From Nitrospirota bacterium (GTDB taxonomy: Bacteria; Nitrospirota; UBA9217), in contig CAVVUN010000003.1 of NCBI GenBank assembly GCA_963751455.1, positions 224,001-288,000 of the forward strand: a stretch of DNA of 64,000 nt, read 5' to 3'. Positions 1 through 13,575 of this stretch are shown piece by piece (within the stretch, counting starts at the first letter, position 1; each line of letters opens with the position of its first letter). The position numbers and the translations under genes are program-made. Under the pieces are notes generated by a model, which worked only from the letters and a program-made list of their open reading frames with translations, searched no databases and had not been told where the DNA came from.

Positions 1-122
1 TTCCCGAGGCCAAGGGCGACTGGTCCCTCGTCTCCGCGAGGGTCCGCACCGCGCTCAAGAAGTTCATCAACAAGCGCATGGAACGCCGGCCCATGATCCT
101 GCCGATAATCATGGAGATATGA
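1..122 (+). CDS. rnj: Ribonuclease J, C-terminal fragment
   Basis: Frame from 3 reads PEAKGDWSLVSARVRTALKKFINKRMERRPMILPIIMEI*, the typical RNase J C-terminus (RRPMILPIIME). Confidence 0.8.
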   Translation, partial: PEAKGDWSLVSARVRTALKKFINKRMERRPMILPIIMEI

Positions 123-295
123 GTTTTTTTGGACGCGGATTTACGCAGATTGACGCAGATGAAAAATTACTGCCATTCACGAAGGCGGCTTTGTTGTCGT
201 GTCGACTTTTCGTCTTGGGGTCTCTGCCTGCGAACCATTCCGCAATCCGCATTCCGAAATCCGCAATCGATACCCACTCAAATTATAACTTGAGA

Positions 296-352
296 ATACC
301 CTGAAAATACCCCGTCGATTTTCTTGACAACGGAAATAATCCTGACAATAAT
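296..352 (+). promoter_or_regulatory. Promoter with ATACCC direct repeat (copy 1)
   Basis: ATACCC at 296 and 307 (11 bp apart), TTGACA 324-329, 17 bp spacer, AATAAT 347-352; paralogous to 6107-6163. Confidence 0.7.
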
Positions 353-500
353 AAACGCAGTTTTTCAGCAATTCCTCCCTCTACCTCTGGAGCTCTGAAC
401 TCTGACCTGGCAACTCTGGGCGCGCAACGTTCCGAAGTGCACCAAGTCCCTTCATCACGCGTCGAAATTGTAATGATCCATCTTATAAGGGGGCCTCAAA

Positions 501-1284
501 ATGACCCTTGTCGATAAAAAGAGAATTCTGGTTGTCGAAGACGATCCTGAAATGATCAAGCTGCACCGGGATTTTCTCTCGGAGAGTTATACAATCATTC
601 ATAAACCTGACGGGAAAAATACCATACGCTATTTAAAGGAGAACCGAAACATACATCTTGCGATCATCGATTACAAACTGCCTGACATGTCAGGCCTCGA
701 GGTTCTTAAGGAAATTAAAAAAATAATGCCCTCTGTTCCCGCCATATTCATAACCGGGCATGGGAACGAAGACGTCGCCGTAATGGCGTTCAGGTGCGGA
801 GCGCGGGACTACGTCAAAAAGCCTTTCGTGTACGAAGAGTTGATGAAGCGGATAGCTTTCTGCCTATCGCTCAACAGTACCAGAGAGAGAAGGGCTGTCC
901 GAAAAGAGCCTGAAAAAATCACTAGCGACATGTTTCCGAGCGCCGATGCCGCGAAAAAAAATTATTACGTCCAACAAGCCTGCAGATACATTCAGAACAA
1001 CTACTCCACAGATATCACTCTTAACCAGGCGGCAAGCACCCGTCGGCGTATCCAAATATCATTTTTCCCGTTTATTCAGAGAGACGACCGGTTCAACCTT
1101 TCAAAGTTATTTAAACCGCGTAAGAATAAAACGAGCAAGGAACTTATTGAGTGATAATGCGCTATCGATCACGGATATAAGTTTTTCCGTCGGGTATTCC
1201 GAGTTGAGGCAGTTTGAGAAGATGTTCAAGAAAATCGTTGGCTCAACCCCTACCGAGTACAGGAAGAGTAACAGTAGGAACTAA
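501..1284 (+). CDS. REC-AraC (YesN-like) response regulator, frameshifted at ~1040
   Basis: ORF 501-1154 has the receiver domain (ILVVEDD, IIDYKLPD, KPF); ORF 946-1284 has the AraC HTH (SKYHFSRLF, ITDISFSVGYS, TPTEYRK). One extra C in ACCCGTC separates them; paralog of 6947-7747. Confidence 0.85.
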
Positions 1285-1409
1285 GGAGTGAGGAGTACTG
1301 CATCGTTGCCTACTGCTTGCTGGAATGTACTTTATTCTGCTGGTTACGAATGTTCCCCTTCTCTCCCCGCTTTTTTCATCTCTATCACGTTTACAACTTT
1401 TCAAAAACA

Positions 1410-1472
1410 GCAATAAAAGACGCATAAAATAGCAAGAAACGCCGCGACAAATTAGAAATTTTATGTAACAAT
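1410..1472 (+). promoter_or_regulatory. Putative AraC-type activator site + promoter
   Basis: GCAATAAAAGACG (1410) and GCAAGAAACGCCG (1432), 22 bp apart; GCGACA-17-AACAAT with extended TG. Confidence 0.7.
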
Positions 1473-1476
1473 ATGC

Positions 1477-1515
1477 CGTGTTGAAGTTCGCTCCGAAGCT
1501 GCGGGCTTCAGCACG
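1477..1515 (+). other. 15-bp RNA stem-loop in 5' leader
   Basis: CGTGTTGAAGTTCGC pairs with GCGGGCTTCAGCACG using 3 G-U pairs, valid only on the + strand. Confidence 0.55.
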
Positions 1516-1708
1516 TTGGATTCATGGTTGACGTTTTTTGAAAAGTTCACAGAAAGGAGGTTAGAAGTGGTTTTATTCTGATACCACTCCAAAGGAAAAT
1601 TTTAAATATTACATCTAATATCATCCTCAGTCGTAACCATAAATTACCACGAGCAAATAAATATGCACAGAAATATTAACACATATTCTCAAAAGGAGGT
1701 TCAAATTT

Positions 1709-2518
1709 ATGAAAAAAATTGCTTTCAGTAATCTGTTCCTTATATTCGTTTTTATCTGCATAAGGCAGGCGAATGCAACAACACTATTGCAGATGAATTT
1801 CGATGATCTTGTCACAATCTCGGACGGAATAGTTGCCGGGACAGTGCACAACATTGAATCTTACTATGATGATCAGAATGAAATATATACAGATATAACG
1901 CTAAAAGATTTGGATATAATAAATGGAATTTATAATCAGAATACGTTGACCATACGACTCAATGGCGGCGAAGTTGCAGGCCATGTGCTTTTTCTTGAAG
2001 GGGCCCCCCGATTCGACCTCAATGATCGCGTAATTTTATTTCTCTTAGAAAACGGTAAAATTCTCGTGCCGATAGCAGGCTGGACACAAGGTGTATTTCG
2101 AGTTATTACGGATCCCAGCACGGCTAAGAAGACGGTCAGGGACCATCAAGGCAATCGAGTTTTTAGCATTGCTGGGGACAGAATTGTAAAGGAAAATATA
2201 TATTCCGAAACGGCAAACCTTGTTGATAAGCGGACAGGGATGGCTATTGTAGCTCATGATGATGGTCAATCTACGGGTGGATTCTCATTCGAAGGCCCCG
2301 ATGGCACAATCCGCAATAGCACGTTGACGGGTAATATGCAAAAGGAGACTCTTGACAGCCCGGATAAACCCGCTATCGAAGTAGAAGCCTTCGTTCTTGC
2401 CATAAAAAATAAGTTGAAGGAAAAAGGCAAAGAGAAGAAGATTATAGTAAATTTCAACAGGTCAGAATATCGTGCGTCCAAGAACTTCGCGGCAAAGCCA
2501 ACAGGTGATAATATGTGA
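1709..2518 (+). CDS. Secreted hypothetical protein (possible protease partner/propeptide-like)
   Basis: SD AAGGAGG, signal peptide ending ANA, directly upstream of the metalloprotease. Confidence 0.7.
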   Translation: MKKIAFSNLFLIFVFICIRQANATTLLQMNFDDLVTISDGIVAGTVHNIESYYDDQNEIYTDITLKDLDIINGIYNQNTLTIRLNGGEVAGHVLFLEGAPRFDLNDRVILFLLENGKILVPIAGWTQGVFRVITDPSTAKKTVRDHQGNRVFSIAGDRIVKENIYSETANLVDKRTGMAIVAHDDGQSTGGFSFEGPDGTIRNSTLTGNMQKETLDSPDKPAIEVEAFVLAIKNKLKEKGKEKKIIVNFNRSEYRASKNFAAKPTGDNM

Positions 2519-2608
2519 TCTGCGGTTCGCGATTCCTCTGCATCCGGATACTGAGCGAAAGTAAAAATTCATCTCTTGTATAGAGTAACTCAGAAAGGAG
2601 CATCTCAT

Positions 2609-3682
2609 ATGAAGAAACATCGAATTCTCAGAGCATTAATTTCCATATCTATCGGATTTGTGCTTACAATACTGACTTCATACAATTCAGCACACGCTTA
2701 TAGCTGGACGCTCTGCCATATCTGGCCTAACACATATAATGTTACCTGGAGATACAATCCGACAATGAATATTAACACAACATCCTTTGTCCCCTGGTCA
2801 TCATGGGATTTGAGGTTGCAGAATGCTATGTCTCATTGGACTAATGTTAATGGGTCGTACTTTCAGTTCTACGTGGGACGTGATACGGACGGAACATACA
2901 GCAGCTCAAACGGCGTCAGTGAAGTATATTTTGCATACGATCTAGGCGCGGGTAGTGGCGTTTTGGCCTTAACAAAGAAGTCATGGGATTGTTTTTGGAG
3001 GGGAGAGTATAGACATTTTTACACAGAAACGGATATAGATTTCAATCTCAATTACTCATGGTCCACATCATCATACGACTATAACAATCCTTCGGGGCTC
3101 GGATATAACTTCGAGGGAGTAGCACTGCACGAGTTTGGCCATGCCCTGGGGCTTGGCCACTCCGATGGCGGAAGTGCTACCATGAATAGTATTTATCCAT
3201 TCAGCGGGCCTATCGGATATAATAGAGAATGGGATCCATTCGCAGATGATCGACAGGGCGTTCGTTTTCTGTACCCGGATTCAACTACGGAAATCGACAT
3301 AGCCGCCTCCCCACTCAAGTACTCAGGAGCTGGTCAATCTACACTGGTTTCGAATCCAATTAATGCGTCAAGAGGATCATATGTAACCATCGAGTTTACA
3401 ACATCAAACATGAGCACATCTTACGTATCCTATAAGACTGGTTTTTACCTTTCTACAGATGAAGTAATAAATACTAATGATATCCTCCTTGGGTGGATAG
3501 GTGTTTGGCAATATCCTGGTAATACATTAACAGCATCATCTCAACAGCTTTACATACCTACTTGGATTTCGCCAGGCTATTATTATCTTGGGTTTTATCT
3601 CGACTATGATTCGCAGATATATGAACCAAGCAAAGAATATAATAATTATCAGCAGATTCCAAGATCTATCTACATTTATTGA
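2609..3682 (+). CDS. Matrixin-family (M10-like) zinc metalloprotease with C-terminal CARDB/Ig-like domain
   Basis: Signal peptide; HEFGHALGLGH metzincin motif; Met-turn ATMNS; C-terminal FYLSTD...PGYYYLG...E..E.NN. Confidence 0.85.
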   Translation: MKKHRILRALISISIGFVLTILTSYNSAHAYSWTLCHIWPNTYNVTWRYNPTMNINTTSFVPWSSWDLRLQNAMSHWTNVNGSYFQFYVGRDTDGTYSSSNGVSEVYFAYDLGAGSGVLALTKKSWDCFWRGEYRHFYTETDIDFNLNYSWSTSSYDYNNPSGLGYNFEGVALHEFGHALGLGHSDGGSATMNSIYPFSGPIGYNREWDPFADDRQGVRFLYPDSTTEIDIAASPLKYSGAGQSTLVSNPINASRGSYVTIEFTTSNMSTSYVSYKTGFYLSTDEVINTNDILLGWIGVWQYPGNTLTASSQQLYIPTWISPGYYYLGFYLDYDSQIYEPSKEYNNYQQIPRSIYIY

Positions 3683-3732
3683 TGCATGGCGATAGATAAG
3701 GTTGTTTGTCACTTCTATTAGTGGAGGTGTTC

Positions 3733-4506
3733 ATGAAAGCCGCCTGCAAACTTCTCATTCTTGTTTTATTAATCACAATAGCATCCTGTCGCGAAAGAAC
3801 TACTGCTGATATAGATTATGTTAACATAGACGAATACTGGACCCTTTACAGGAGTTCGGGTGAAGCGAGCGGAGAAAAAATATATTATTTAACGATCGTG
3901 AAATCGGCAGCGCCCGGCGCACCCTTTGGAACGTTTCAATATATTACCCCTGTAAATTTTTCATCCGGCGACCTTTCTCTCGGAGAAAAACTTCAGACTC
4001 AAACTCTTCAGCACTCGCTTCCAGATATCTCTTTTTCCTGGTTTTCTCTAACTGAAGAAGACGGCGAAATTACCTGCACAGGCCAGATCAATGGCGATGT
4101 AATGAGCGGTCAATGGACTCAGAAAATTATTTCGTCAGGTCTTACAGGAACAGGTACATGGAGGGCCTCGAAGGGTCTTGACGACGTGGAAAACGGCTCA
4201 TTTAAAAGAAACGTTGACACAGGAAAAACGCAGATCTATTTTCGGGCATGGGCAGACAGTGCGAGCAGGGTCTATGTCACATCTGATTTCATTACTGGAG
4301 CAGTCGAACTTGTTAAGTGCGGCAAGACAACTTTGAACATAGATATCTGGAAGATTTCGAATACACCCGATTGCTCAAGCGAAGGCTACTATGAATTCCC
4401 TACGCCATCAGGCTCATTAGTCGTGAAAACGCACATTGTAAAACCTTCCGGAGAAATAGTTCGTGAAAAAATAATCACTGATGGTACTGAAATAACTGGC
4501 AACTGA
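3733..4506 (+). CDS. Hypothetical lipoprotein
   Basis: SD GGAGG; lipobox IASC. Confidence 0.7.
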   Translation: MKAACKLLILVLLITIASCRERTTADIDYVNIDEYWTLYRSSGEASGEKIYYLTIVKSAAPGAPFGTFQYITPVNFSSGDLSLGEKLQTQTLQHSLPDISFSWFSLTEEDGEITCTGQINGDVMSGQWTQKIISSGLTGTGTWRASKGLDDVENGSFKRNVDTGKTQIYFRAWADSASRVYVTSDFITGAVELVKCGKTTLNIDIWKISNTPDCSSEGYYEFPTPSGSLVVKTHIVKPSGEIVREKIITDGTEITGN

Positions 4507-4854
4507 ATTGGGCGCTGCATCACTCTACAATATACCGGCAGATCTAGGACAAGGCCTGTTTCGCTAGATGAAATCCCTTCATCCAACCCCTTCAGGGCAA
4601 AAGCTTTAGCGACTGGTAGTAGTTGACGTTGTTTCAAAAAATAGATAATGTGGCATGATGATGCTGTCAGGTGTGAACTCCAGTACCTCGATTCCGGCAC
4701 CGCAGCCGGAACCAGTGCAGGAATCTGTGAAGAAATAAAATAACATCTTTAGCGCCCCTTAAATCCCCTTTGGCTAGGGGGGCAGCCTCTAAGGCAGTTA
4801 ATTCTTGTTTTTGTCAATGAACAAGTGCCGAATGTAATTTAAGGAGGAATTCAA

Positions 4855-5385
4855 ATGACTAGACTGCCGGGTTTTATCTTATGTATGGCACTTCTTTTTA
4901 CGGGCATCAGTTGCAGCATCGGGTCAAATGAAACGGGGACAGGCGGCATTATTACGGCAAGTAGTGGCTGCAAGTCGCAAACTCAAGGAAAGGCCGGCAT
5001 TGGCTTGCAAGCAGCCAGTGATACCTATCAGAGCAACAAAACGTATGTGCTTTATAGCGATGAGGGGAAAACCCTCTCTCTTAAACACATAAACGCAGCT
5101 TTCAACTGTTGCCCTGAAAGCATAACGGCTAGCGCGACTATAGCTAATGGAACGATATTGATTGAAGAAAAAGAGGATACTTCGAGACGCGCATGCAACT
5201 GTCTCTGCCTGTATGATCTTGATATGAAAATTGAGAATGTAGAGGCAGGGCAATATGTTATGAAATTTATTGAGCCATATCGCTATACTGGAGATCCGGC
5301 AATTGAATTTACCATTGATTTGGCGCAGCAGACATCAGGAGTTTTTGAAGCGGCGAGAACTAAATACCCGTGGTATATGCCGTAA
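4855..5385 (+). CDS. Cys-rich lipoprotein (NCC...CxCxCxYD), paralog 1
   Basis: SD AAGGAGG; lipobox GISC; FNCCP and CNCLCLYDL motifs. Confidence 0.75.
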   Translation: MTRLPGFILCMALLFTGISCSIGSNETGTGGIITASSGCKSQTQGKAGIGLQAASDTYQSNKTYVLYSDEGKTLSLKHINAAFNCCPESITASATIANGTILIEEKEDTSRRACNCLCLYDLDMKIENVEAGQYVMKFIEPYRYTGDPAIEFTIDLAQQTSGVFEAARTKYPWYMP

Positions 5386-5432
5386 CACCTATGCCGGGTA
5401 CACGAGCTGCAAGACAATCAGTAGGGGATGGT

Positions 5433-5924
5433 ATGACGAGACCACTGGGTGTAATTATTTGTGTCGCGATTCTTTTTATTGGCATTAGCTGCAGCAGCGG
5501 ATCAAATGGAACGGGAACAGGCGGCATTATTACGGCAAGCAGCGGATGCAAGTCGCAGACTCAAGGAAAGGCCGGCATTGGCTTACAAGCCGCTGATACC
5601 TATCAGGCGGACAGAACATATGTGCAATACGAATTCGAGAACAACAATCTTTTTCTGAAGCATATAAACGCCTGGTTCAACTGTTGCCCAACCAGTATAT
5701 CGGCCGTCGCTTCCGTCGTTGATGGAACAATATCGATTGAAGAAAAGGAAGACCTTTCGAGAAGCGCATGCAAATGTTTGTGCCGATATGATTTGGACAT
5801 GAAAGTAGACAACGTAGAGGCCGTGCAATATACAATCAGAATCATTACACCGCAAGTAGCACAACCCATCGAATTCAACATATATCTGGAGAGGCAGACA
5901 TCAGGCGTTTTTGAAGTGGTGTGA
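5433..5924 (+). CDS. Cys-rich lipoprotein, tandem paralog 2
   Basis: Near-identical N-terminus (GTGGIITASSGCKSQTQGKAGIGLQAA), FNCCP, CKCLCRYDL. Confidence 0.75.
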   Translation: MTRPLGVIICVAILFIGISCSSGSNGTGTGGIITASSGCKSQTQGKAGIGLQAADTYQADRTYVQYEFENNNLFLKHINAWFNCCPTSISAVASVVDGTISIEEKEDLSRSACKCLCRYDLDMKVDNVEAVQYTIRIITPQVAQPIEFNIYLERQTSGVFEVV

Positions 5925-5975
5925 ACCAAAGACGTTTGCTTGTAAAATACCACGCAGCTTCAAGGACGCAAACCA

Positions 5976-6004
5976 GATCCCCGATAAGGTCGTTCGGGGA
6001 TGAC
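5976..6004. repeat. REP-like palindrome
   Basis: ATCCCCGA...TCGGGGAT followed by GAC. Confidence 0.45.
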
Positions 6005-6106
6005 AAAAAGAACTGTCATGCATCTGCTTTAACCATTCCGCACTCCGCACGCGCAACTCCGAATTAGATAAGCTCCGCAATCGCGCCCTTAAATTGTAAT
6101 TTAAGG

Positions 6107-6163
6107 ATACCCTAAAAATACCCCATCGATTTTCTTGACAAAGCAGTAAATCCCGCTAATAAT
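6107..6163 (+). promoter_or_regulatory. Promoter with ATACCC direct repeat (copy 2)
   Basis: ATACCC at 6107 and 6118, TTGACA 6135-6140, 17 bp, AATAAT 6158-6163. Confidence 0.7.
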
Positions 6164-6351
6164 AGTGCAGTTTTACTATTCCTGCCTCTACACCAGTGCG
6201 ATTGTTTTTCTCGGTTTTGAACCGTCTCAATGTTTTTTTACAAGCTACTTAAGATGTTCCACGATGTGCCCTGAGGCGCACTGTTTTTACGGTGATTTAC
6301 GATGACCTTCCGCGGTACTGCATCTGTGCCGCCTGAAAAAGGGGAAGCGCC

Positions 6352-6950
6352 ATGATCCATGAATACAGCATTAATAACATTCCGGTACTGACGGGCGATA
6401 TCATCTGCACTACCGACGGGGGGCCCCGATTCTCGAAGGGCAGTTTTGGCGGTTTATCGGGAAGCTCATCCCGGGGCCGGTCGACCATGTAGCCGTATAT
6501 ACCGGGCCGGAAGGCAGGTGCGTGGAGGCAGGCCCGAGCGGCGTCGTTGCATTCGACGTCGCCGGAGGGACGTGGAATTCCCTGAATATGCAAAAGCAGC
6601 GCGGGCTCGTCGTTGATACGTTCTACGGGATCGCGTGCCCTGCGGAAAGAGACGGTCTTTCCAAAAGCGAAAAGACGGAAATCCGGGAAAATGTTGCCGA
6701 CTACTGCCTGTATCAGGCCAGGGCGCGAAAACCGTACAACCTGAACTTTCTCAATTCGCGGACGGAACATTCTTTTTACTGCAGCCAGCTGGTATACATC
6801 GCGTACCTGAAGAACGGCATAAATCTGAATACCGACATCGGCATTCCCGATTTTCCGGGAAGCCACTCGATCATTTTTCCCCAGGAGCTCTGGAGCGGCT
6901 GCACGAATAAAAGGCGTGAAGGGGAAAAGAGCGGGGCAAGACGGCCATGA
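6352..6950 (+). CDS. Permuted papain-like NlpC/P60 (YiiX/YebB-type) hydrolase, frameshift at G-run ~6420
   Basis: MIHEY..LTGDIICT then, after a one-base shift, PVDHVAVYTG...VEAG...KPYN...FYCSQLV (His before Cys, the permuted order). Confidence 0.75.
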
Positions 6951-7747
6951 TTGCCGAAACATCCCGCACAGCGGCAAAAAAGACGATCCTGGTAGTTGAA
7001 GACGATCCTCATATGATTGCTCTCCACCGGGATTTTCTGTCCGACAGCTACACGGTGATTCTTAAAACCGACGGCAAAAAGACCCTGCGCTTTTTAAAGG
7101 AGGCCCGCGGCATCGATCTTGCGATCATCGATTTCAGGCTTCCCGATATGTCGGGCATCGAGGTCCTGAAAGAAGTAAAGAAAGCGCTGCCCTTCATTCC
7201 CGCCATATTCATAACCGCGTACGGAAGCGAGGACATCGCCGTGAAGGCCTTCCGGTGCGGCGCCCGGGAATATATAAAAAAACCGTTCGTGTACGACGAG
7301 TTCGTGAAGAGGATAGATTTCTGCCTGTCGCTTAGTGAGATCCGGCAGGTGAAGAGAAGAACGCCGGTGGTGAACGAGCAGGAAGACAATATAGCCGACG
7401 CATCTGCCTCAAAAAGGAGCTATTCGCTCCAGCAGGCAAAAAAATATATCGATAACAACTATACTGCGGAGATCGCCCTGGAGCAGGTCGCCGAAATAGC
7501 CGGCGTGTCCGTATATCATTTCTGCAGGCTCTTTAAAGTAATGACCGGTGTGACTTTCCAAAGCTACGTGAACCGCCTCAGGATGGAGCAGGCCAGGAAA
7601 CTCCTGGATGACGACGGCTTTTCGATCACGCAGATTGCATTCTCGGTCGGTTATTCCGACCTTACGCATTTTGACAGGATATTTAAAAAAGTTTCGGGCT
7701 GCACGCCTACGCAGTATAAAGCTCGGGCCACAATACCGGGAAAGTAG
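6947..7747 (+). CDS. REC-AraC (YesN-like) response regulator
   Basis: Receiver (ILVVEDD, IIDFRLPD, KPF) + AraC double HTH (SVYHFCRLFK, ITQIAFSVGYSD, TPTQYK). Confidence 0.92.
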   Translation: MIAETSRTAAKKTILVVEDDPHMIALHRDFLSDSYTVILKTDGKKTLRFLKEARGIDLAIIDFRLPDMSGIEVLKEVKKALPFIPAIFITAYGSEDIAVKAFRCGAREYIKKPFVYDEFVKRIDFCLSLSEIRQVKRRTPVVNEQEDNIADASASKRSYSLQQAKKYIDNNYTAEIALEQVAEIAGVSVYHFCRLFKVMTGVTFQSYVNRLRMEQARKLLDDDGFSITQIAFSVGYSDLTHFDRIFKKVSGCTPTQYKARATIPGK

Positions 7748-7870
7748 CACGAAACACCACCCTGCCCCCCGTCCTGAAGCACAAACCGACCCTTTGTTCG
7801 TTGTGCATTTTGCAATTTACACTTTGCAATGTGCAATAATCCTCGGTCTATATCTGTTTTTTCCCGAATC

Positions 7871-7933
7871 GCAAGAAATGCTGAATGTTTAAGCAAGAAA
7901 CGCCGAGACGGGAATTTATTAATATGCAATAAT
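7871..7933 (+). promoter_or_regulatory. Putative AraC-type activator site + promoter
   Basis: GCAAGAAATGCTG (7871) / GCAAGAAACGCCG (7893), 22 bp apart; GAGACG-17-AATAAT with TG. Confidence 0.7.
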
Positions 7934-8004
7934 CATCCGGGGTACGATATTTTATCCTGATACGGCTGCGCTATAAAAGCATTTGCCCGCTGGATGGTTA
8001 AAAA

Positions 8005-8409
8005 ATGAAAAGGTCTGTTATACCTCTGTCACTGCTGCTTCTGCTGATTGCAGGCTGTCGGCCGGACCTGGTCGTGGAGAAAATCAGCTCCGACAGCGCG
8101 GCCGGGACCGTTACTGCGACGATAAATAATATCGGCAATGCGGATGCCGGTGGTTTTCTCGTATACTTTAATGCTGAAGAAGATCCCGGGTCGGAAAGCT
8201 ACTTCCCGCGGGTGAGCCGATCGGTTCCCGGTCTCGCCAAGGGTCAATCCTTGACGCTGCCGCCTGCCCAATTCGGTCCGCTGACCGGGCCGGACAATAA
8301 CGCGAGAAGGATCTACCAGGTGACGGTCGTAATAGATCCTGAAAATACGGTAAAAGAATCAAAAGAATGGAATAACGATAAAAGCATTCCTTTCCATTTT
8401 CCACGTTAG
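8005..8409 (+). CDS. CARDB-domain lipoprotein
   Basis: Lipobox IAGC; PDLVV...TINNIG.ADAG.F.V...IDPENTVKESKEWNN CARDB signature. Confidence 0.8.
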   Translation: MKRSVIPLSLLLLLIAGCRPDLVVEKISSDSAAGTVTATINNIGNADAGGFLVYFNAEEDPGSESYFPRVSRSVPGLAKGQSLTLPPAQFGPLTGPDNNARRIYQVTVVIDPENTVKESKEWNNDKSIPFHFPR

Positions 8410-8512
8410 CCGTAAGAGCGCCATAATCATATCGCTGCTCGTTGTGTTTGCCTCTTAACTATCAATTCAGCTCATAATCCTGCCTTTGTTACTTTTCTAA
8501 ACAAATTAAATA

Positions 8513-8575
8513 GCAAATAACGCCGACTGTTTTAGCAAGAAAAGCCGAGACAAATTTTTTATTTTGTGCAACAAT
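8513..8575 (+). promoter_or_regulatory. Putative AraC-type activator site + promoter
   Basis: GCAAATAACGCCG (8513) / GCAAGAAAAGCCG (8535), 22 bp apart; GAGACA-17-AACAAT with TG. Confidence 0.7.
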
Positions 8576-8612
8576 CCGAAAGTTTCGTTCTTACCAAAAC
8601 AGGAGAATAAAT

Positions 8613-9491
8613 ATGATTAACCGTTGTAACGCACTTATCAGGGCATCCTTGTTGCTCCTTGCTTGTTTAGTCATAAGCGTCGTATCGCTTCAGACAGCGA
8701 GCGCCTTTGCCGATGATGAGAACCAGGACCATCTTCCTGCCCGGTATTCGAGCGAAGCTGACTCGTTCCACTCCTACCTGCCTTCATACATGGGCTATTC
8801 GCTGGACAATTCAGTTCCCGGCAATAAAGGAGAGCTCAAGTTCCAGTTCAGCGTGAAATACGAACTCATCGCCGATACTGACTGGTATTTCGGGTATACC
8901 CAGAAGTCTTTCTGGAGCATCAGAAAGGAATCCGCTCCATTCCGCGAAACGAATTTTTCCCCGGAGACGTTCTGGCTCTATAAGCCGGAAGGAATTTCCT
9001 GGCTCCCGGTGGTCCAGGTAGGAATGTATCGCCATGAATCCACAGGAGAGGACGGAAACGGCTCCCGGGGATGGGACCTCACGTATCTTGAGCCGGCTTT
9101 TCACTGGAACGGAATCTATGTAATCGCGAGGGTATGGGCGCCTTCCGTGGTCCAGGGCTTCAACAAGACCAAGGCCGCCCCTGACAACCCCGACATATTC
9201 AAATACCAGGGATATGGAAGACTGACCGTGATCTACGGAAACGACAGCGATGTCCAGCTTTCCCTTTCCCTCCAGCACGCGCCTACGGACAACAGCATCG
9301 CCTGGGAAAGTCAGGCCGATGTGCCCTGGAAGACTGTCGCGAAAATACTGAGGCCTCTTTTCGGCATTGACTATATACCCAAGTGGAATCCGTCATATTT
9401 CATTCAGGCGCGAAACGGGTACGGGGAAGGGCTTAAAACCTACAATGTCAAAACCTCGAGTGTGGTCTTCGGTGTATCGCTGGTGAGGTAA
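8613..9491 (+). CDS. pldA: Outer membrane phospholipase A1 (OMPLA)
   Basis: ELKFQFSVK, FGYTQKSFW, SAPFRETNFSPE, HESTG...SRGW, DNPDI, GYGE motifs. Confidence 0.88.
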   Translation: MINRCNALIRASLLLLACLVISVVSLQTASAFADDENQDHLPARYSSEADSFHSYLPSYMGYSLDNSVPGNKGELKFQFSVKYELIADTDWYFGYTQKSFWSIRKESAPFRETNFSPETFWLYKPEGISWLPVVQVGMYRHESTGEDGNGSRGWDLTYLEPAFHWNGIYVIARVWAPSVVQGFNKTKAAPDNPDIFKYQGYGRLTVIYGNDSDVQLSLSLQHAPTDNSIAWESQADVPWKTVAKILRPLFGIDYIPKWNPSYFIQARNGYGEGLKTYNVKTSSVVFGVSLVR

Positions 9492-9529
9492 TACCGGGAT
9501 ATCGGCGAGACCTTGGGCCAAGGCAGATC

Positions 9530-10582
9530 ATGGAAAAAGATTTTCATTACTGTTTAATCCGGGTATTGGCTGGGAAAGCAGGCTTCAACCGGGAGGAAGC
9601 CCAGGTCATTGCCTATGCGTCTCAGTATGTCGATGATTCAGTCGAAAATCAGCCCCTCTCAATCGATAATATCCCGGATCTCGTTTTTCCCCGCCTGAAT
9701 GTCGAGAACGGCACGTTCGATCCCATCTGTACTGCTCACAGGGGCATCCAGTATCTGACGGGCATGACGAAGCACGTTCAGATGAAAGTCTATATCCCCT
9801 TTCACTTTATCCCGCCTGTCGAATACTCCGGAAACGGAGCATATGAATACTGCACGTCGCCCAACAGCACGATCGCCGGCGATCTTGTAAGGCACGCAAT
9901 TACAGAACTCAAGGATGATGGCAGCAATCGCGTTCAAAAACTCGTCAAGCTCGGCATCGCGCTCCATTCGTTTGCCGACACCTGGGCGCACCAGCGATTT
10001 TCTGGCCGCTGGAGCGCAAGGGACAATGATATTGACCGTATAGCTCTGTTCCGGAACAAAAAGTGGAAGGCCCTGAAGCATCTCGACCGGCTGAAAACAA
10101 ACATCATGCCCGACGTGGGACATGCGGAAGCGATGACGTATCCCGATCAGTCTCACCTTAAATGGCGGTACGAGCACGGCCACTCCGGGCTCGATCACGA
10201 ACGCAATAATACCCTGATTTTCCTTGAGGCAGGGCATGCTGTTTTTCAGCTGCTCTGCGATGCCGCTGGAACATCAGGGAACTGGAAGGAGCATCTGGAA
10301 AAAATCAGAAAATGTCTCTCGGTTCCGGCTGATTCCGTAAAACGGAAATTTTTCCGGTATGTCAAGCTGTTTCCCGAGATCTCATTCAGTTATCACGAGA
10401 ACGAGTGGAGAGAGAGCGCCCTCGAGGGGGAGCGGTTCAATTGGATCGATTTCAGCAGGGACGATTATTCCGGGGTTACCTACACCTTCAAAGGCAGCGA
10501 CTTGAGATGGTTTTATTTCCATATGGAAGCGTACGCGCAGAGAGAATACGTCAAAAGCAAAATCAAAGGAGATCTTTTATGA
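9530..10582 (+). CDS. DUF6765-like protein
   Basis: N-terminal DFHY..AGF..EA..IAYASQYVDD, PFHF, GIALHSFADTWAHQ.F, VGHAEA..PD. Confidence 0.7.
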   Translation: MEKDFHYCLIRVLAGKAGFNREEAQVIAYASQYVDDSVENQPLSIDNIPDLVFPRLNVENGTFDPICTAHRGIQYLTGMTKHVQMKVYIPFHFIPPVEYSGNGAYEYCTSPNSTIAGDLVRHAITELKDDGSNRVQKLVKLGIALHSFADTWAHQRFSGRWSARDNDIDRIALFRNKKWKALKHLDRLKTNIMPDVGHAEAMTYPDQSHLKWRYEHGHSGLDHERNNTLIFLEAGHAVFQLLCDAAGTSGNWKEHLEKIRKCLSVPADSVKRKFFRYVKLFPEISFSYHENEWRESALEGERFNWIDFSRDDYSGVTYTFKGSDLRWFYFHMEAYAQREYVKSKIKGDLL

Positions 10583-10607
10583 ATTCCGGCAGAAACAAGG
10601 GGGTGCT

Positions 10608-11118
10608 ATGAGCAAATTCACGAAAGTTCTGGTGGTTTCGCCGTACCAGGACGGCAAGACCTGGTACCTCCGGAGAGCGTTCGGGTATGACCGCGGCGCG
10701 GAAAGCAGCCGGCAGTACGATCATGGTCCCGGTCGGCTTCACGACCGACTTCGCGAGCATTCCGCGGATCTTTTGGATCGTCCTGCCGAAATGGGGAAAG
10801 TACGGCAACGCCGCCGTCATTCATGATTACCTCTACTACGATCAGAAACTGACAAGGAAGGAAGCCGACGATGTGCTGCTCGAAGCCATGGGCGTCCTCG
10901 AAGTGCCGCAATGGCAGCGCTGCTCCATTTACCGCGCTGTCCGATGGTTCGGATCCCTTGCATGGTCGCTCAACAATAGGAAGAAGGCGGCCGGCTACTC
11001 AAAAGTCTCGGAGACCGCGCCTGTCAAAGCAACGGACAAACCGTCGCATTGGAAGATAGAAAAAAAAGAGTGGGTACGGATTGTATTCGGGAGAAGGAAA
11101 GCGCAGCATCATGCTTGA
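10608..11118 (+). CDS. DUF1353 protein, frameshift ~10709
   Basis: VPVGFTTDFASIPR, AAVIHDYLY, RKEAD, YRAVRWFG; N-terminus lies in ORF 10608, one extra C away. Confidence 0.8.
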
Positions 11119-12172
11119 AAGACGCCCCTATAAACCATACAACCTTTTCCAAAAGCTATTTACCCTTTTAGCAGCGCTTTTTTTGCTTATAACGGGATCT
11201 GCTTTTGAAACCGCGCCTGCCGCGAAGCAGGAAGCAGGGAAAAGGAGAATGGTTCGGCAGGAGAATTTTCTTCTTCGCGCCTACGAAGAGCTCGACAAGT
11301 CCCTGGAATATCAAAAGGCCGTCATCGTAAGACTGGAAAAACGGAATCTGGCCGGAGCAGGAGCAGATTTAAAGCAGTATCTGGACTGGCAGCGAACCTG
11401 TGCTGCCTGGCTCAGGGAGCGGCTCTCGGAATCCGGATCCGATCTCGAGAACTTCTATTCTCACAAAATGATCAGACCGTTCCTTGCCGCCCGTCACTCT
11501 GCAATGGCTGAGGATTATACCCGGCTTAAGAGTGAACTCTCGCAGATGATGCTGCAGCTGGAAGAGGCAAAAGTACTGAATGCCGCTGAAATTCAGAAGC
11601 TGCTCAGAATTATCGAGTTCTACGAGTATCTGAACGAGCAGACCCTGAAAAAAAAGATTGCTGATGAAAAGCGGATTCCTGATCGAAAACCGCCCGATGG
11701 CTGGACATTTTTTTCCGGGGGCCTTAATGACGATAAGATCGAGCAGATGGGGCTCAAGATCAAAAAGCTCGACGAACTGCAGAAAGAACTGGACGACATG
11801 CTGGAGTTCGGAAACTACGAGTTACACTGGCTGGTGCTGAAGAGCGGGGACAGCGCCGCAATAAGCAGCGTTGCCGATGCCCTTGCGACAGACTCACTGG
11901 ATGAGATCGAGATCGCCTCGACCCGCATGATCAGCCGATATGAGTCCGATATCTCTTTTATCGATAAGAAACTCGGAGAAATGGACGGAAAGCGGCTAGG
12001 CCTGGCGCCGGGAACAGGGACGATGAGAACAATCGACCGCCGGGAAGAACTTTGGGACTATTACTGGACCATGAAGGACAGATTCGAGCATCACAAACAG
12101 TGGCTGAAAGAACAGGTCGGCGGTTACCGGGCGGACATAGTGCTGCTTTCTAAAGAGAAGAGTGAAAAGTAA
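11111..12172 (+). CDS. Hypothetical membrane-anchored coiled-coil protein
   Basis: N-terminal hydrophobic segment; helical charged sequence. Confidence 0.6.
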   Translation: MLERRPYKPYNLFQKLFTLLAALFLLITGSAFETAPAAKQEAGKRRMVRQENFLLRAYEELDKSLEYQKAVIVRLEKRNLAGAGADLKQYLDWQRTCAAWLRERLSESGSDLENFYSHKMIRPFLAARHSAMAEDYTRLKSELSQMMLQLEEAKVLNAAEIQKLLRIIEFYEYLNEQTLKKKIADEKRIPDRKPPDGWTFFSGGLNDDKIEQMGLKIKKLDELQKELDDMLEFGNYELHWLVLKSGDSAAISSVADALATDSLDEIEIASTRMISRYESDISFIDKKLGEMDGKRLGLAPGTGTMRTIDRREELWDYYWTMKDRFEHHKQWLKEQVGGYRADIVLLSKEKSEK

Positions 12173-12221
12173 AATCTTCATTTCGGACTCTGTCCTAAAG
12201 CACAACAAACAGAGAAACCTT

Positions 12222-12755
12222 AACTTCATGCCATGGAGTTCAAGGTTTTTTTTATTTTTCTGCAGCTGTATTTGACCTGCCCAAACCCCGGGCAGCTCGA
12301 GTACGACAAACATCAAACCGGGCATGCAAAGCACAAAAACCAGGGATCGTGGACTTCATGCAATGAAGTTCGGGATACTTTTCTTTTTTCTGCACCGCCG
12401 TTCACATTGCCGCGCAGACATGCCAGACTACTCGCAGTTTTATCCGTCAGTACAGCTTTCCATAGCGCTGAGCTTCGTTGCACTGCGCACGCGCATGCAC
12501 GATTTGTGGCCTGCGACTCTGCTACCGGTATGTAAAGCGCGGCCGGTGCTCACGCCCTACTCTCGCGCTGCAGACTCGAAGTCGTTGGGTGCAGGCGGGA
12601 TGCAGGGGATTCTGGAAAGGCAAATTTAAACACAACAAATTTGCACTTTGCAATTTACAATTTGCATTTTTCAATGTTCTTTCGTATCTGTGGGATGCAG
12701 GGGTGTTGGGAAAAACAAACTAAAACATAACAAATTTGCACTTTGCAATTTACAA
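12222..12755 (+). repeat. Modular non-coding repeat cluster (family A)
   Basis: 12350-12620 is the reverse complement of 21875-22135; extra partial modules at 12222-12300 and 12692-12755. Confidence 0.85.
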
Positions 12756-12861
12756 TTCCAATGTTTTTGTGATTTTATCAAACTCTGTCTTGCGTAAAAC
12801 CAGGTTTTGGTTTAATTTATAAAGCAATTCAAATTGAAAGGCAGCTCCGAAACAACAAGAC

Positions 12862-13575
12862 ATGAAAAGAATAATCTTCGCAATCACACTGGTGCTGGTC
12901 GTAAGCGTGTTACAGGGTTGTTTGCTGACCCGGCTCCACGAGACACAGAAGCAGGTATGCACAAGAAAAACAAGGCTGGAGATGACCCGTGACGGAATGG
13001 CGATTGTGTTTCATCAGCCGCTTTTGACACGCGAGGACATTATCGCAATCCTGGGAGCAAAGCCCGATGCAGTCCCGGAAACAACTGAACTGCTTTACAC
13101 CGCCCGGAATAAAAATGACGAGGCATACAGCTTTCCCGTCACATTTCAGTTCAGCAGCTCCGCCAAACAAGTTAAATTAACGAAGATGAGTATTGGAAAA
13201 AGATTCCAGGATCTTCTGTCCGAAGAATTGCTGCGTAAAATATTCGATGCGGGCTGCAGCGCAAAAAGAAACGGCCTGGGCATCGAGGTTGATCTATCCG
13301 GAGTGCCGAAGGAAAAATTGCCGAACGTGGAGGTTATAAAGACGTTACTGGGTCAGCCTGCCGCTGCCGCGGGGACCACTGCCACGTATAATTATGAACT
13401 GAATCGCACTGACATGGCGGAAATCATTATCTCTTATGATAATGAGCTGAACAGAATGACCGGCGCCGCTGTTTCGTTTCAGAGATATAGTCTTGTTTTC
13501 GATTTTACTAAAGATGTTGCCACAGGCAGGTTGAAGAGCTTTTCAGATGCAGTCAGATTGGGCTTCAAGCCATAG
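12862..13575 (+). CDS. Hypothetical lipoprotein
   Basis: Lipobox LQGC. Confidence 0.7.
   Translation: MKRIIFAITLVLVVSVLQGCLLTRLHETQKQVCTRKTRLEMTRDGMAIVFHQPLLTREDIIAILGAKPDAVPETTELLYTARNKNDEAYSFPVTFQFSSSAKQVKLTKMSIGKRFQDLLSEELLRKIFDAGCSAKRNGLGIEVDLSGVPKEKLPNVEVIKTLLGQPAAAAGTTATYNYELNRTDMAEIIISYDNELNRMTGAAVSFQRYSLVFDFTKDVATGRLKSFSDAVRLGFKP

Follow-up and report, generated by a model that had tools for sequence, protein, structure and literature searches.

A tandem 22-bp box as the probable operator of a dispersed REC-AraC regulator family in an uncultured Nitrospirota bacterium

We analysed a 64,000-nucleotide stretch of the genome of a Nitrospirota bacterium (GenBank assembly GCA_963751455.1, contig CAVVUN010000003.1, positions 224,001–288,000; hereafter the window), in which three promoters carry a pair of direct repeats 22 base pairs (bp) apart, close to two genes for regulators that join a receiver (REC) domain to an AraC-type DNA-binding domain. 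The paired box is very probably the operator of these REC-AraC regulators, as judged from its position behind their genes, its co-occurrence and covariation with the regulator clade, and a half-site layout resembling that of XylS. Since this layout overlaps a weak −35 element, an operator of the class II AraC-family type is most likely, and the family probably consists of activators. The paralogs probably share the sites, which are found at 15 places in the genome.

A tandem box behind the REC-AraC genes

The three operators lie on the forward strand at 1410–1472 (boxes at 1410 and 1432), 7871–7933 (7871 and 7893) and 8513–8575 (8513 and 8535). The common geometry described by the original prediction is present at all three, with a box period of exactly 22 bp, far above chance. 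Each half-site is composed of box A, (A/C)GCA, and box B, GCCG, separated by 6 bp; the consensus from the refined matrix (see below) is TAGCAAGAAATGCCGA. The second half-site overlaps the hexamer at the −35 position (GCGACA at 1444, GAGACG at 7905 and GAGACA at 8547), and 17 bp further downstream stand AACAAT, AATAAT and AACAAT, respectively, with TG at −15/−14. Operator 1 combines an overlapped weak −35 with an extended −10 element.

A matrix built from the six window half-sites alone was scanned on the 5.72-Mb genome, as had been proposed, and gave 14 strong pairs at the 22-bp spacing. Other spacings from 15 to 30 bp gave 0–4 strong pairs each, and 25 column-shuffled matrices gave 0–6 pairs at 22 bp (mean 0.64). 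With a refined matrix, trained on the 12 best sites and circular in its scores for those 12, we obtained 15 genome sites: 12 at 22 bp (36–55 bits), two at 23 bp and one at 24 bp. An additional pair at 32-bp spacing (29 bits) stands outside this set. All 15 sites point toward a downstream gene, and 12 of them have a −35/−10 arrangement of the GAGAC type; position −11 is A and position −7 is T in all 12, and TG is present in nine.

A dispersed repeat or the end of a mobile element was considered as the origin of the box and does not fit: few flanks are shared (eight similarities among the 15 sites, in regulator-gene ends and in the group of sites on contigs C4 and C6), all sites face downstream genes, and there is no Rfam match in window positions 1–13000. 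The possibility of a generic repeat unlinked to the regulators, raised by the original prediction against itself, is likewise not borne out; five of the six REC-AraC paralogs in the genome have a site.

Another reading takes the regulator to act as a repressor when bound to the box, or the box to be mainly a silent relic on mobile islands. Thirteen of the 15 targets lie in regions below the background mean G + C content of 0.512, insertion sequence-like genes adjoin targets and several genes are broken, all of which would suit this reading. The weak, overlapped −35, however, is the pattern expected for class II activation, as set out in PMC10268841, and the boxes are conserved while most flanks are without detectable similarity. 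We thus consider repression or a relic quite improbable, and prefer the operator of an activator.

Six paralogous regulators and their receiver domain

Two of the six paralogs are encoded in the window, both on the forward strand. The second (6947–7747) is intact, comprises 266 amino acids and was modelled as a two-domain protein; its AraC double helix-turn-helix matches HTH_18 with an E-value of 1.3e-24, and its receiver fold superimposes on 3crn with a root-mean-square deviation (rmsd) of 1.1. Paralog 1 (501–1284) is spread over two frames (501–1154 and 946–1284, with a break near 1040), the second of which also matches HTH_18, and is either a pseudogene or affected by an assembly indel. Further frameshifts are found in the Peptidase_C92 gene (∼6425), probably in the DUF1353 gene (∼10700), and in enolase (C4:27820–29082). 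As the break in enolase shows that the assembly has such splits beyond the window genes, the window frameshifts may be assembly indels. The regions upstream of both regulator units (window positions about 222–384 and 6021–6190) are homologous over ∼160 bp, and the two units therefore arose by duplication. Homologs found by a sequence search from the genome contigs are distant, the best being 35–38% identical and from Nitrospirota metagenome-assembled genomes (MAGs).

The five paralogs with a site have it 106–227 bp behind them: the two in the window, for which the position directly after the regulator had been predicted correctly, and those at C1:130280, C1:100685 (where the regulator is interrupted) and C15:1523393.

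Asp62, Thr90 and Lys112 of the receiver are present in paralog 2 and are conserved in 91, 88 and 91, respectively, of 91 homologs. In agreement with the predicted lack of an adjacent cognate kinase, the kinase cores nearest to the six paralogs are 11–92 kb away. Among 20 loci from relatives, a kinase is present in two, one of them with its own NtrC-type partner. Control of the regulator by phosphorylation is, in our estimate, evenly balanced between true and false.

Taken strictly, the original prediction amounts to a local, self-contained regulon of three promoters that the two window paralogs operate and phosphorylation controls. The proximity of three sites and two paralogs within 8.6 kb, the intact receiver residues and the confinement of the box to the regulator locus in sister-clade genomes (see below) speak for it. 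Against it, the genome has 12 further sites and four more paralogs outside the window, paralog 1 is frameshifted, a nearby kinase core is missing as described, and a second, family-wide box precedes both window regulators. "Self-contained" does not hold, and we regard the local regulon as very improbable; a dispersed set of targets of the REC-AraC family is the reading we follow here.

Covariation of box and regulator among relatives

The comparison covered 63 genomes of the family and 237 from the rest of the phylum. Of the family genomes, 23/63 have a homolog at E ≤ 1e-45 and 5/63 an ortholog of 55–57% identity. All five genomes with an ortholog at least 55% identical have the 22-bp box behind the gene, which is the synteny that the original prediction had suggested looking for. 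The 22-bp pattern itself occurs in 5/63 family genomes and 0/237 others (reversed control, 0); four of these carriers have the ortholog, and the site in the fifth lies 31 bp from a contig end. A motif-first scan of metagenomes gave 27 loci, of which 15 have a regulator of 51–66% identity ending 169–269 bp upstream on the same strand; counting only loci with at least 400 bp of upstream sequence, 13/22 carry it.

A sister clade of regulators (∼40% identity) has its own 21-bp variant of the box, starting GCAT/TCAT. We found 28 such sites in 17/63 genomes; 27 of them directly follow the regulator gene or partial copies of it arranged in tandem. When 35 proteins were placed in a tree, a branch with support 100/99 separated the 21-bp group (17 rows) from the rest, and seven of the eight proteins with the 22-bp box clustered at 99/99; L013 (frameshifted), L032, L118 and L120 were omitted from this tree. 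The sister clade also differs at the phospho-site, where Glu replaces Asp in 15/17 aligned proteins. Its loci L149, L151, L152, L154, L155 and L157–L161 contain a Glu regulator, often with tandem partial copies that each have a 21-bp box, and after the regulator copies a giant DUF11 surface protein of >1600 amino acids. Tandem boxes of their own, led by GCAA, follow the genes of three more distant homologs (L106, L029 and L030; from G060, a deltaproteobacterial MAG and a Geobacter MAG), and in four others the box is partial or unclear by eye. The genomes compared are kin and not independent, and the linkage of box and regulator is given as counts, with no test statistic.

An alternative is that another factor uses the box, or that it belongs to the promoter of an alternative sigma factor, and that the REC-AraC genes merely co-travel. 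Linkage alone would account for the adjacency, 10/15 genome sites are without a neighbouring regulator, and GCCGA resembles the −10 element of sigma-28. On the other hand, sequence and period of the box shift with the REC-AraC clade, the pattern was not found in 295/301 genomes, and the regulator is present in all carriers that could be tested. A sigma-70-like −10 in register 17 bp downstream and the duplication of GCCGA, unneeded by a single sigma promoter, argue against an alternative sigma factor in particular. We judge this alternative improbable and retain the REC-AraC regulators as the proteins that most likely read the box.

A second motif upstream of the regulators

A box of the form TACCC-N6-TACCC is found at 297–312, upstream of regulator 1, and at 6108–6123, upstream of the unit that contains the C92 gene and regulator 2 (both forward strand). 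Each ends 11 bp ahead of a near-consensus sigma-70 promoter, TTGACA-17-AATAAT (324–352 and 6135–6163, forward strand, 11/12 matches each), and these two, which rank highest among the sigma-70 matches of the first 13 kb, are the predicted promoters of regulator 1 and of the regulator 2 unit.

The box has 39 matches in the genome, 36 of them intergenic (reversed control, 1); five of the 36 have an inverted GGGTA in 7-2-7 form, and 17 of the 36 precede genes that pass our signal-peptide heuristic. It is present in 51/63 family genomes and 9/237 others. A NarL-type REC-GerE regulator shows a similar distribution (49/63 family and 12/237 other genomes) and occurs among seven of the nine box carriers outside the family. 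In this genome its gene (C3:204144–204767) adjoins a HisKA_3 kinase, and in 15/19 loci from relatives the box lies at most 250 bp from the REC-GerE gene, none being antisense. The box also stands ahead of the REC-AraC gene in G018 and G060, and partly in G023. We therefore call it the NarL-type box, and a cascade in this genome, from the NarL-type regulator to the REC-AraC regulators in two tiers, appears somewhat more probable than not from these sequence associations.

Genes behind the box

The genes at 1709–12172 described in this paragraph are on the forward strand, and the gene names of the original prediction are upheld by Pfam (REC and HTH_18, Peptidase_M10, CARDB, PLA1, DUF6765 and DUF1353). 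Operator 1 is followed by an exported protein of 269 amino acids without a family match (1709–2518), possibly a partner or pro-domain of the metzincin (matrixin-like) protease at 2609–3682; the latter has an intact zinc motif and Met-turn and a weak C-terminal CARDB domain. A predicted lipoprotein without a family match follows (3733–4506) and, 350 bp past this gene, two paralogous Cys-rich predicted lipoproteins (4855–5385 and 5433–5924), which are candidate members of the protease operon. The frameshifted gene that precedes regulator 2 (6352–6950) encodes a permuted papain-like amidase (Peptidase_C92, below the curated cut-off). Behind operator 2 lies a CARDB-domain lipoprotein (8005–8409). 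Operator 3 is followed by an outer-membrane phospholipase A1 of the PLA1 family with a His-x-Ser motif (8613–9491), DUF6765 (9530–10582), DUF1353 (10608–11118; the Pfam match is in the 10687–11118 frame and the plausible start, 10608, in another) and an open reading frame (ORF) of 363 amino acids (11081–12172) with an N-terminal hydrophobic stretch and no family match, a candidate member of the regulated unit. Further downstream, an AT-rich sequence of ∼40 bp occurs twice, ∼100 bp apart, at 12620–12760 in the spacer that precedes the gene at 12862.

DUF6765 lacks a signal peptide. A paralog is encoded downstream of a different site (C15:1406000), and one named homolog is from a Nitrospirae bacterium. 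The model (predicted local distance difference test, 94.9) is predicted to have a phospholipase C/P1 nuclease-like fold with invariant His and Asp residues. Its six best structural matches are all zinc phospholipases C or S1/P1 nucleases (Z 5.1–7.3, rmsd 3.3–4.6; next match Z 3.7), Foldseek gave no significant match, and PF00882 is annotated on one of the 120 homologs listed. The fold evidence for a relative of phospholipase C and P1 nuclease is a middling but coherent hint, and DUF6765 is a probable phosphoesterase.

Elsewhere in the genome, the sites precede a papain-family protease fused to DUF6531 and RHS repeats (2007 amino acids), DUF6765 with a papain-family protease, a thermolysin propeptide with an M4 protease, BNR, NHL and PKD proteins of up to 2501 amino acids, two transglutaminase/phosphodiesterase giants, beta-helix and Ig giants, an SpvB-domain protein broken by a transposase, and an SpvB/TcdB_midN/RHS protein of 3401 amino acids. 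The 24-bp site is followed by a small ORF and a hybrid kinase. The next gene passes the signal-peptide heuristic at 13/15 sites versus 518/2234 in the background, a home-made test on a crude gene set that skips the DUF6765 gene at C15:1405673 and counts C1:130280 with an opposite-strand ORF of 410 amino acids between site and cargo. A gene of at least 1200 amino acids lies within 5 kb of 8/15 sites versus 101/2234 in the background. The earlier claim that the targets are mostly exported hydrolases is thus supported by both heuristic and Pfam.

The 410-residue ORF recurs (C6:56233–57465 and C1:128774–130006), has no Pfam match and is probably a transposase; one copy lies 63 bp upstream of a site, and the other is the one between site and cargo. 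Just downstream of the C1:130280 site (minus strand), a tract of TACA tetranucleotide repeats comes after the predicted −10. We also considered the hybrid kinases behind sites (C2:528337 here and C99 in G018) as one conserved feedback partner and rejected this, as their identity is a generic 24–30%.

In relatives, the 22-bp box precedes a papain and a caspase (G009), SpvB/FG-GAP at an orphan site (G018) and a patatin (G057). In G023 (C70; L145:7459–15000, L178) it precedes a sigma-54 activator and then Pvc16, sheath, tube, spike and baseplate genes, the gene cluster of an extracellular contractile injection system. The same sigma-54 activator follows the box in metagenome loci L206, L211 and L221. 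Six of 16 metagenome ORFs have Pfam matches: sigma-54 activator, MAP3K_TRAF_bd/TPR-S, papain, thermolysin propeptide, DUF6345 and Phd antitoxin. Behind the 21-bp box, the giant DUF11 protein is found in 10/14 fetched loci. Because the cargo differs across the loci of relatives, the constant unit is the regulator with its operator, and the cargo is exchangeable.

Evidence against an operator of REC-AraC activators

A number of observations weigh against the reading of box, cargo and cascade given here. One paralog, at C12:282175, is without a site, and a search for a variant box on either side of it and ahead of the convergent subtilase gene gave none. (The latter, C12:283296–290222 on the minus strand, encodes 2309 amino acids with many Big_5 domains.) A search downstream of the gene for L121 also gave no box, several of the metagenome loci are near-duplicates, and a box beside a gene can be co-inherited without being the target of the regulator. 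The sites of this genome are partly copies, with 99% identity downstream between the two C4 promoters and 86% upstream between the two C1 sites. Three sites (C4 twice and C6:62929) lack a −35/−10 in register, and at these a second motif occupies the expected −10 position. In the metagenome set, A at −11 in the 17-bp register is found in only 6/22 distinct sites, so that the exact start is uncertain, although TG and T at −7 are kept in 20/22.

The cargo is not always exported or hostile, as shown by DUF6765 and an HTH/kinase unit in this genome and by an alpha-amylase, a CysQ-like gene and a hybrid kinase behind the 22-bp box in relatives. Conversely, only three of nine RHS clusters and two of five SpvB genes in this genome lie behind a site. 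Finally, the NarL-type box is not found upstream of the REC-AraC gene in G009, G014 or G049, nor of the C1:131186 paralog.

Proposed mechanism and meaning

We propose that two regulator molecules bind head-to-tail to half-sites two helical turns apart, and that the downstream molecule, which would overlap the −35 position, recruits RNA polymerase to a promoter that would be weak by itself. The elementary building block is a cassette, in which the regulator gene is followed by its own operator-promoter and then by whatever cargo is present. This arrangement is observed directly; that the cargo is activated we infer from the sequence. Through the spread of the operator to 15 places, exported proteases and phospholipases, together with giant surface proteins and RHS/SpvB-type proteins, would have come under one dispersed programme. 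Its input probably comes partly through transcription, since both window regulators lie behind the box tied to a NarL-type response regulator with its own kinase, and phosphorylation of Asp62 by a distant kinase is conceivable.

The cargo suggests that the programme serves competition, scavenging and surface attachment; a mainly antagonistic role is possible, at somewhat less than even likelihood. More speculatively, the portable activator with its own promoter could act across uncultured Nitrospirota-like bacteria as a master switch that plugs into interbacterial weaponry (RHS/SpvB-type toxins, contractile injection system, proteases and phospholipases). It would then be the lower of two levels, beneath a NarL-type system found throughout the family, and in one branch an Asp-to-Glu change would keep it locked on and driving giant DUF11 surface proteins. 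If this tentative picture is true, these organisms have an inducible programme of attack or predation.

A regulator–operator pair that can be read from sequence, with a 15-site regulon, is of use in an uncultured lineage. As a tag, the operator can help to locate conflict systems and exported enzymes when related genomes or metagenomes are scanned, and it has already led to DUF6765, a probable phosphoesterase, and to the contractile injection cluster. Clades with differing boxes and periods (22 versus 21 bp) also provide a natural series on how AraC proteins read DNA.

Comparison with known systems

Direct repeats ∼21 bp apart and next to the regulator have been predicted for the REC-AraC hybrids of Bacteroides, according to PMC3878776. 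The module and the repeats resemble those described here, and the best sequence match in the Protein Data Bank (PDB) is 12aw. The Bacteroides systems, however, are single sensor–kinase–regulator proteins for glycan use, whereas our regulator stands alone; a hybrid of this type is ruled out, as the 266-residue protein holds REC and HTH_18 only.

With the YesN/AraC two-component regulators (PDB 6swi) it shares a REC domain, an AraC double helix-turn-helix and intact phospho-site residues, and many homologs are named "YesN" in JGI. It differs in having no adjacent kinase in 6/6 genome loci and 18/20 loci of relatives, in being compact and not beside sugar transport genes, and in a sister clade with mostly Glu at the phospho-site. 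No NCBIfam model among the 25 listed matches the regulator at its cut-off.

The second motif is similar to NarL-family heptamer operators in its TACCC-led heptamers, some of them inverted in 7-2-7 form, and in its proximity to a REC-GerE gene with a HisKA_3 kinase. What sets it apart is a constant direct repeat of 11 bp immediately ahead of a good −35.

We found no description of such a cassette in the literature covered, which included few subscription papers, nor an account there of DUF6765 or of an AraC-family activator regulon with Rhs or polymorphic toxins.

The closest parallels are XylS at Pm and the class II promoters of MarA, SoxS and Rob, with two direct-repeat half-sites of box A, 6 bp and box B and the forward site over a weak −35. 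XylS binds two 15-bp direct repeats, each with box A (TGCA), 6 bp and box B (GGTA), as given in PMC5481539, and class II AraC-family promoters are described in PMC10268841 as having the forward site overlapping a poor −35. The sequence would fit the class II arrangement in 12/15 genome sites, its register being less clear in relatives. The present system differs in using a receiver as the sensing domain in place of an effector-binding domain, in placing the operator directly behind the regulator gene, and in a cargo of exported hydrolases, adhesin-like giants and toxin-like proteins. The proposed mechanism of activation is textbook and already known; new are the cassette with exchangeable cargo, its spread over 15 sites, the exported and conflict cargo, the probable NarL-type tier and the Glu-bearing sister clade.

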